From positions 1-32,744 of IMG/VR virus record IMGVR_UViG_3300017727_002534: a DNA stretch of 32,744 nt; one strand, 5' to 3'. The notes under the pieces are model-generated. The model ran no database searches and was not told where the DNA came from. It was given only the letters and a program-made list of their open reading frames with translations. Positions 14,344 through 18,557 of this stretch are shown here, in pieces (position 1 is the stretch's first letter; every line of letters starts with the position of its first letter). The DNA is from a virus. Taxonomy: Duplodnaviria; Caudoviricetes. The translations under genes were made by a program, and so were the position numbers.

Positions 14344-14511
14344 ATGGAAGAGAAAGTCATCGATTGCGTTTCGGATGTTATTGATTGGGCTAACCAACGT
14401 ATAGTTTCTGAAGATATTGAATGGGAAGATGCAGCTGCACTATCATTAGAGTTTAAGGAATGGTTAGAAGAAGATGAAATTGATCTCCTATATCTTGACA
14501 GATTGGACTAG
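14344..14511 (+). CDS. Hypothetical acidic 55-aa protein (not in ORF track)
   Basis: MEEKVIDCVSDVIDWA...EFKEWLEEDEIDLLYLDRLD; AAGGGT upstream. Confidence 0.65.
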   Translation: MEEKVIDCVSDVIDWANQRIVSEDIEWEDAAALSLEFKEWLEEDEIDLLYLDRLD

Positions 14512-14523
14512 ATGATTTATAAT
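14495..14523 (+). promoter_or_regulatory. Consensus sigma70 promoter for the RNA/tRNA transcript
   Basis: TTGACA-17nt-TATAAT. Confidence 0.88.
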
Positions 14524-14528
14524 TTAAG

Positions 14529-14591
14529 AGTTGAGAAATCAACTGCGGTAACTCCCTTGGTAGTTTAGAGTTAGCGGCGATAGGAACTACC
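14529..14591 (+). ncRNA. Candidate structured RNA (5' hairpin plus pseudoknot) leading tRNA-Arg
   Basis: AGTTGA-GAAA-TCAACT hairpin; TAACTC/GAGTTA stem crossed by GGTAGTT/AACTACC. Confidence 0.6.
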
Positions 14592-14597
14592 ATTACT

Positions 14598-14671
14598 GGT
14601 TCAGTAGCTCAGATGGATAGAGCCACGCACTTCTAATGCGTTGGTCGCAGGTTCGAGTCCTGCCTGAATCG
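14598..14671 (+). tRNA. trnR: tRNA-Arg(UCU)
   Basis: Acceptor GGTTCAG/CTGAATC; anticodon arm ACGCA-CTTCTAA-TGCGT; GTTCGAG T-loop; CCA not encoded. Confidence 0.95.
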
Positions 14672-15920: not shown

Positions 15921-15949
15921 TTGACACAGACTTAAAAACGTCTTATAAT
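15921..15949 (+). promoter_or_regulatory. Consensus sigma70 promoter
   Basis: TTGACA-17nt-TATAAT, 25 nt before ATG 15975. Confidence 0.9.
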
Positions 15950-18450: not shown

Positions 18451-18478
18451 AATCATAATCAGGGTTCCTGATACCACT

Positions 18479-18551
18479 GCTTCCTTAGCAATCTGGTGAA
18501 TGCAGCAAACTCATAATTTGCCTAAGGTGAGTTCGATCCTCACAGGAAGCA
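18479..18551 (+). tRNA. tRNA with CAU anticodon (elongator Met or Ile2)
   Basis: Acceptor GCTTCCT/AGGAAGC; anticodon arm GCAAA-CTCATAA-TTTGC; G1-C72 paired, so not an initiator. Confidence 0.9.
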
Positions 18552-18557
18552 TTGGGA

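Follow-up and report, generated by a model that had tools for sequence, protein, structure and literature searches.

An uncatalogued, optional pseudoknot RNA behind a sigma70-type promoter in T4-like cyanophages

A structured element between a promoter and a tRNA gene

The window analysed here is a whole 32.7-kb virus record (32,744 nt) carrying nrdA, nrdB, 2OG-Fe(II) oxygenase and carbamoyltransferase genes, together with four tRNAs identified by ARAGORN. On its plus strand, a sigma70-type promoter (TTGACA-17-TATAAT; 14495-14523) matches the consensus at 12 of 12 positions, with its -35 box inside the end of a 55-aa ORF (14344-14511), and is followed by a tRNA-Arg(UCU) gene (14598-14671). A preliminary description of this DNA had pointed to the promoter and to a pseudoknotted RNA, richer in GC than its surroundings, ending 6 nt before the tRNA. 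The promoter and the 6-nt distance were both borne out, and GC content is 0.51 in the core of the element against 0.33-0.36 in its flanks. Elsewhere in the window, a second perfect sigma70-type promoter (15921-15949) lies 1.3 kb downstream, ahead of the 2OG-Fe(II) oxygenase gene, and a tRNA-Met(CAT) called by ARAGORN at 18478-18552 is absent from the gathering-level matches to Rfam and may be degenerate.

The predicted mature RNA (14530-14597, plus strand, approximately 62-68 nt) is bounded by the predicted +1 and by a putative RNase P cleavage site ahead of tRNA-Arg. It would open with a 5'-terminal hairpin, P0, of 5 bp with a GAAA loop (14530-14543), to which A14529-U14544 could add a pair. 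The transcript had been proposed to start on this hairpin at about 14529; the hairpin folds at a z-score of -4.5 (14529-14544), but the distance between the -10 box and P0, exactly 7 nt in 228 of 278 homologous contexts, places the start at G14530. P0 is followed by a conserved UGCGG (14544-14548), comprising a linker and the 5' strand of a basal extension (C-G, G-C and then G opposite G), by the 5' strand of the 6-bp stem P1 (14549-14554, pairing with 14568-14573), by loop L1, CCUU (14555-14558), and by the 5' strand of P2 (14559-14566, pairing with 14584-14591), a stem of 8 bp here and of 8-10 bp in homologs. L2, one conserved A (14567) located where the two helices meet, leads into the 3' strands of P1 and of the basal extension (14568-14576), and loop L3 (14577-14583), with the pattern G-C-N-A-N-A-G, precedes the 3' strand of P2 (14584-14591), which contains a purine run.

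Distribution of the element and independent gain and loss

BLASTN searches identified homologs in the Synechococcus phages ACG-2014f, S-SM2, Bellamy, S-SKS1, S-B05/S-B43/S-H68/RB11-B, S-SCSM2R and SynMITS9220M01, and in the Prochlorococcus phages P-SSM2/P-SSM5. Pattern scans yielded an estimated 710 matching stretches in IMG/VR, about nine in ten of them real where checked, and an estimated 880 in metagenomes. Among the matches listed by these scans (approximately 120 per scan), 244 viral loci were parsed, and both stems were present in 228 of them; the others comprised 15 chance matches and one locus whose P2 was damaged. De-duplication left 283 contexts (numbered loci below carry the prefix L) and 167 cores. 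A covariance model returned one strong match (62-73 bits) in each of seven positive genomes, and nothing above 14 bits in eight other genomes picked as relatives or references. The element is hence single-copy in each positive genome and optional.

The comparison with S-SCSM1, the closest to the window among 15 cultured cyanomyoviruses (nrdA 92.7%, nrdB 95.5%), outlined this optional character. S-SCSM1 retains the upstream gene, the same promoter and the tRNA-Arg, with a few bases between promoter and tRNA, and lacks the element. This layout indicates that the promoter belongs to the locus, that the tRNA can do without the element and that the latter represents an insertion at +1. Single-gene FastTree phylogenies place genomes with and without the element as sisters in four cases for nrdA (window/S-SCSM1, ACG-2014f/S-CAM7, SynMITS9220M01/P-TIM68 and S-SCSM2R/S-SSM7), of which window/S-SCSM1 and ACG-2014f/S-CAM7 are also supported by nrdB. 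At other loci, the element is retained ahead of a small ORF that follows tRNA-Pro in S-SM2. Gain and loss of the element are thus independent of the tRNA. No comparable divergent pseudoknot was found before tRNA-Arg or tRNA-Pro in the negative genomes.

Searches in bacterial sequences did not return a host homolog. The two stems were present in none of the 120 bacterial pattern matches listed from the 40 of 64 parts of the genome contigs that were scanned, and covariance-model searches of 151 genomes from the family of a Cyanobium MAG, with 38 candidates scored per genome, identified no host copy; three weak matches (23-32 bits) lacked L1 and P2. We also searched for a phage protein tracking the element, taking the 1011 ORFs of three positive genomes as TBLASTN queries at E 1e-4, a search that may miss small proteins, and no family was distributed 7/0, 7/1 or 6/0 among the seven positive and eight negative genomes. 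An ORF of about 60 aa often follows the element or its tRNA-Pro (the S-SM2 piece L756:2288-2479, and L187, L207, L222, L247, L616 and L697); it is present in five of the seven positive and none of the eight negative genomes, and is annotated as an antitoxin in S-SCSM2R.

A pseudoknot supported by covariation

The preliminary description had recognised a TAACTC/GAGTTA stem (14549-14554/14568-14573) and the pairing of its GGTAGTT loop with a downstream AACTACC. Both helices covary among homologs, and define an H-type pseudoknot in which the second, P2, gains an eighth pair, U14566-G14584, that is C-G in 106 of 110 homologs (14559-14566/14584-14591). To assess covariation, 110 of the 167 cores, all from T4-like cyanophages, were aligned; they had been selected to be diverse, from cores with no fewer than 5 pairs in each stem. 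Changes on both sides were observed in 12 of 17 pairs, including all six pairs of P1 and five of nine in P2, where the junction-proximal pairs are nearly invariant, and pairing holds in 99.4% of the 1812 alignment cells. The covariation score was 0.537, compared with 0.198 in shuffled alignments (0 of 500 reaching the observed value) and at most 0.087 in slid registers. The compensatory changes by which the proposal was to be judged are hence present.

The circularity introduced by the filter and by the search pattern was countered through scans leaving each part of the element free. When only the flanks were specified, a perfect 6-bp P1 with a P2 of at least 8 bp was recovered in 82 of 84 distinct cores, and CCTT and the L2 A in all 84. 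With the 3' half left free, 107 of 119 loci were canonical, the rest comprising nine with a G-C to G-U change, two with one extra L3 base and one that was cut off; freeing the 5' side instead gave 113 canonical loci of 117. A pseudoknot of 6 and 8 bp arose by chance in 6 of 2000 shuffles.

RNAalifold independently chose P1 together with the basal extension. The basal pairs are C14546-G14576 and G14547-C14575 (the latter U-A in 11 of 110 sequences), with G14548 opposite G14574, and the extension is bordered by G opposite G on both sides; the CTGC/GCGG register suggested earlier is not supported. A further pairing that had been considered possible, CCT/AGG (14555-14557/14582-14584), showed no double changes in 110 sequences, and G14584, which it would require, is also claimed by P2. 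Taken by itself, the nested fold of 14525-14597 does not reach significance (z-score -1.4), as expected given that pseudoknots are not modelled in that fold. Outside the stems, the P0 loop varies widely in length and sequence, with 141 different loop sequences in the automatic P0 call, the L2 A changes to G in one variant (L016), and two variable positions of L3 alternate with conserved A's. Overall, the two pseudoknot stems and the basal extension are real and supported by covariation.

A predicted triplex in the pseudoknot

Most H-type pseudoknots have L1 placed in the major groove of their second stem, while the minor groove of the first is occupied by the long loop (PMC4627078). The same arrangement can be predicted for the element, with L1 as a third strand in the P2 major groove, and the purine run of the P2 3' strand as its presumed acceptor. 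CCUU would run parallel to GGAA and form C.G, C.G-C, U.A-U and U.A-U major-groove triples, placed where the junction-proximal pairs of P2 are fixed while distal ones covary; the position of these putative triples would account for that difference. The support for the triplex comes from invariance, apart from a few variants of the junction pair: C.G is replaced by U.A in a single lineage (L021/L022), with no further case found by a targeted scan, is U.G in a second (L151) and is broken to C.U in a third (L016). L3 is predicted to cross the P1 minor groove, and its alternating conserved A's suggest A-minor docking. A triplex in the pseudoknot is likely.

Catalogue and literature status

At the gathering threshold, Rfam 15 matched only tRNAs in the window. 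With E-values of up to 10, the best matches overlapping the element were chance matches of 12-20 bits, none of them to a riboswitch or ribozyme. The Rfam search called for in the preliminary description hence assigned no family, in agreement with its account of a compact RNA that it could not place, and searches of an open-access library, with few subscription papers in it, returned no description of the motif. The work of Fremin 2023 (PMC10690425) reports 10,006 unnamed candidates, among them DNAVirus_1017, which is 51 nt long, similar in length to the element, and comes from Synechococcus phages. Motif searches in the readable files of that work returned nothing, and the element may be among its unnamed candidates. 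Taken together, the data indicate that the element is real, that it is absent from RNA catalogues and optional in cyanophages, and that its pseudoknot is well supported.

Promoter position and downstream context

A salient feature of the element is where it lies with respect to the promoter. A sigma70-type promoter is followed, after 6-8 nt, by a hairpin of 4 bp or more that closes on the first base of the core in 258 of 278 contexts, compared with 49 of 2780 shuffles. A late promoter was rejected as the general driver, with TAAATA preceding P0 in only 2 of 278 contexts. Boxes resembling T4 late promoters, as judged against the T4 late consensus, were seen just ahead of the hairpin in L174, L633, L694 and L726, and constitute the sole promoter in L726; judging from these boxes, some phages may express the RNA late.

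What follows the element is more variable. Eleven of the 283 contexts were too short for a downstream call, and in the 272 usable ones the next gene was tRNA-Arg(UCU) in 135, tRNA-Pro(UGG) in 51 and tRNA-Lys in one, with no intact tRNA in 85, a few of which hold degenerate tRNAs. The structure is conserved and the downstream context is not. In 161 of 187 cases, 3-4 nt separate the element from the tRNA (by ARAGORN starts, which may be one base early), and tRNA-tRNA spacers in the same phages are 0-4 nt in ARAGORN coordinates; given these similar distances, the element is packed like a stable-RNA gene. The tail after it is AT-rich (75% AT), and no terminator of its own was detected.

In the contexts without tRNA, the next ORFs are, from their N-terminal sequences, what we take to be gp32-like, psbA-like, purM-like, purH-like, deformylase-like and Sm-like proteins, besides unknown ones, and a second promoter occurs within 45 nt after the element in 18 of the 85. 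Autoregulation by gp32, as with the T4 gene 32 pseudoknot, was discarded as a role, since a gp32-like ORF follows in only 5 of these 85. Several of the individual contexts have features of their own. In L037, L062 and L178 the element is intact and the tRNA-Arg is broken after the D-loop. The ORF that comes next begins with a Cys-rich segment and may encode a homing endonuclease that has invaded the tRNA-Arg. L692, L694 and L716 share an apparently structured leader between the element and the psbA-like start, which did not match PhotoRC-II or any other Rfam family. A short palindrome recurs between the element and the next promoter in L036, L057, L130, L140, L143 and L148.

Expression data

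Evidence of expression was sought in assembled Logan contigs, among which no discrete transcript was observed. Copies of the element from relatives were present, at a depth of 2-7, in three of seven runs labelled as RNA (X3, X6 and X10). Among the contigs with the element, one continues downstream and two include upstream sequence; extending beyond the element, they are compatible with carry-over of DNA. One X10 contig, which continues downstream, gives way to what looks like a library adapter some 10 nt into the element from its predicted 5' end. Near-identical RNA contigs in X1 and X2 end at 14513 and 14506, before the element, and bear on its transcription in neither direction.

Proposed role and competing explanations

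The functions put forward in the preliminary description were a ribozyme, a nuclease-blocking element, a ligand sensor and a decoy. Of these, a decoy or other protein-binding role is the best fit, nuclease blocking is weakly backed, and the ribozyme and ligand sensor fit poorly. We tentatively favour, at somewhat less than an even chance, a stable trans-acting small RNA, released by RNase P and stabilised by the triplex, that is predicted to bind a protein of the host, serving as its decoy or inhibiting it. Such an RNA would be transcribed early by the host polymerase from the strong host-type promoter, giving a paired, triphosphorylated 5' end that would protect that terminus. Its 3' end would be freed by RNase P where a tRNA follows, a plausible route in 187 of 272 contexts that had already been suggested for this locus; in the 85 without an intact tRNA, an endonucleolytic cut in the AT-rich tail and trimming back to P2 could have the same outcome. 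The triplex would then protect the remaining 3' end, and the invariant tertiary surface would bind the host protein. The invariant bases lie in the predicted tertiary core and the sole free single strand, the P0 loop, is variable, which argues against antisense pairing; given that no phage protein was found to track the element in the seven positive and eight negative genomes, the partner would be the host's.

A bolder reading, which we regard as possible but doubtful, is that the RNA is a stand-alone effector of host takeover or counter-defence, which would either block an enzyme of the host that binds RNA (RNA polymerase, RNase E/J or a defence nuclease) or sponge up a signalling nucleotide. 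If this were true, the element would constitute an RNA counterpart of the protein inhibitors and sponges of phages, swapped between lineages like a tRNA gene.

The location at +1 in 258 of 278 contexts is predicted equally well by a cis-acting modifier of the polymerase, in which the nascent RNA, like put, would bind host RNA polymerase and suppress pausing or termination in the operon that it heads. The length of approximately 62 nt, the two domains and the lack of a terminator also agree with this explanation, which is absent from the preliminary description and is the main rival to ours, but which we nonetheless consider unlikely. In seven of eight genomes a promoter with a match of at least 11/12 precedes the first predicted terminator (one of the seven has no terminator within 9 kb), and some terminators overlap new promoters, a layout that argues indirectly against a need for antitermination. 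Furthermore, each genome has 16-44 such promoters and one element, S-SCSM1 does without it at the same locus, and the fold, an H-type pseudoknot with predicted major-groove triples, is a different one.

Two further proposals appear improbable, and to a similar degree. The first is a cis-acting 5' stabiliser akin to xrRNAs that would block entry of RNase J or RNase E and protect the transcript behind it. The long P1 and P2 might encircle the 5' strand, and the element does head mRNAs in part of the 85 contexts without tRNA. Bacterial RNase J1 is blocked by xrRNAs (PMC8374639) and RNase J is present in cyanobacteria (PMC10989914). In 187 of 272 contexts, however, the RNA to be protected is a tRNA, which would be cut off at once; there is one occurrence per genome, and the primary 5' end is already closed by a hairpin, whereas xrRNAs make new 5' ends inside transcripts.

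The second is a binder of small molecules, either a riboswitch or a free aptamer soaking up a signalling nucleotide. The compactness of the pseudoknot, the invariance of its junction bases (C14555, A14567, A14582 and G14583) and two G-opposite-G positions recall the anatomy of aptamers, of which SAM-II and preQ1 are examples. The element lacks, however, an expression platform, the genes behind it form no consistent regulated class, the Rfam searches described above matched no riboswitch at E up to 10, and the predicted triplex seems complete without a ligand; these points bear on a riboswitch, and less so on a free aptamer.

A self-cleaving ribozyme, possibly helping tRNA processing, is very improbable: high conservation and adjacency to tRNAs recall the theta ribozymes (PMC10879173), and in L3 an invariant C precedes a variable base and then an A, but the element lies 5' and not 3' of the tRNA, its single H-type knot has no room for the P3/P1.1 of a nested double pseudoknot, an RNA beginning at +1 has no leader to cut, sister phages make their tRNAs without it, and no Rfam ribozyme matches. 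A mimic of the tRNA acceptor was rejected on inspection, with P2 length and terminal pairs varying.

Significance

The element constitutes an uncatalogued and strongly conserved RNA family for the model cyanophages P-SSM2, S-SM2, S-SKS1, ACG-2014f and Bellamy, whose hosts are culturable, and natural sister pairs with and without it (window/S-SCSM1 and ACG-2014f/S-CAM7) make its function directly testable. Should it bind a host enzyme, it would be relevant to the means by which cyanomyoviruses seize control of gene expression in their hosts or escape defence. As a compact natural pseudoknot with a likely triplex, it is also suited to structure work.

Comparison with known systems

Phages are known to carry pseudo-ToxI decoys. 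The antitoxins ToxI and CptI are small H-type pseudoknots with loop-stem triplexes that act by protein binding (PMC4627078). The H-type pseudoknot is common to the element and to the type III antitoxins ToxI, CptI and TenpI, but the element has neither tandem repeats nor an adjacent toxin gene, its neighbours being tRNAs and unrelated ORFs. It is also longer than ToxI and CptI, with a 5' hairpin and a promoter position of its own.

HK022 putL, as described in PMC9378689, is an RNA of approximately 70 nt located just behind an early promoter, with two stem domains and a short triplex, that works untethered to the transcript. The element is similar to put in length, in its two domains and in lying directly behind a promoter (258 of 278 contexts). 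The put RNAs of lambdoid phages, in contrast, are two stem-loops arranged in a V with a minor-groove triplex, whereas the element combines a hairpin with an H-type pseudoknot, is mostly followed by a tRNA and has triples predicted in the major groove.

Structured non-coding RNAs have been described in T4-like cyanophages, namely manA (RF01745), wcaG (RF01761) and PhotoRC-II (RF01717) (PMC2864571), and the element matches none of these models. In ACG-2014f, manA lies right behind the same tRNA-Arg as the element; it was dismissed as a partner, being present in three of seven positive and two of eight negative genomes. It was also observed between two tRNAs, at L001:1632-1842 (ACG-2014f, with 1-nt spacers) and at 64012-64222 of the RB11-B record, a placement more in keeping with a processed stable RNA than with the catalogued role of manA as a 5'-UTR regulator.

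The theta (minimal HDV-like) ribozymes are small pseudoknotted phage RNAs located 3' of tRNAs and folded as a nested double pseudoknot (PMC10879173). The element, on the other hand, lies 5' of the tRNA (187 of 272 contexts), begins at a promoter and forms a single knot; in 84 of 84 cores, just one nucleotide separates the 5' strand of P2 from the 3' strand of P1.

For the processing that we propose, the nearest likenesses lie elsewhere. T4 species 1 and 2 (rnaC/rnaD) are stable RNAs released from tRNA-type precursors, and the MALAT1 triple helix precedes mascRNA, where RNase P leaves a 3' end protected by the triplex. The element differs from these in fold, being a pseudoknot, and in forming the predicted first part of its transcript.
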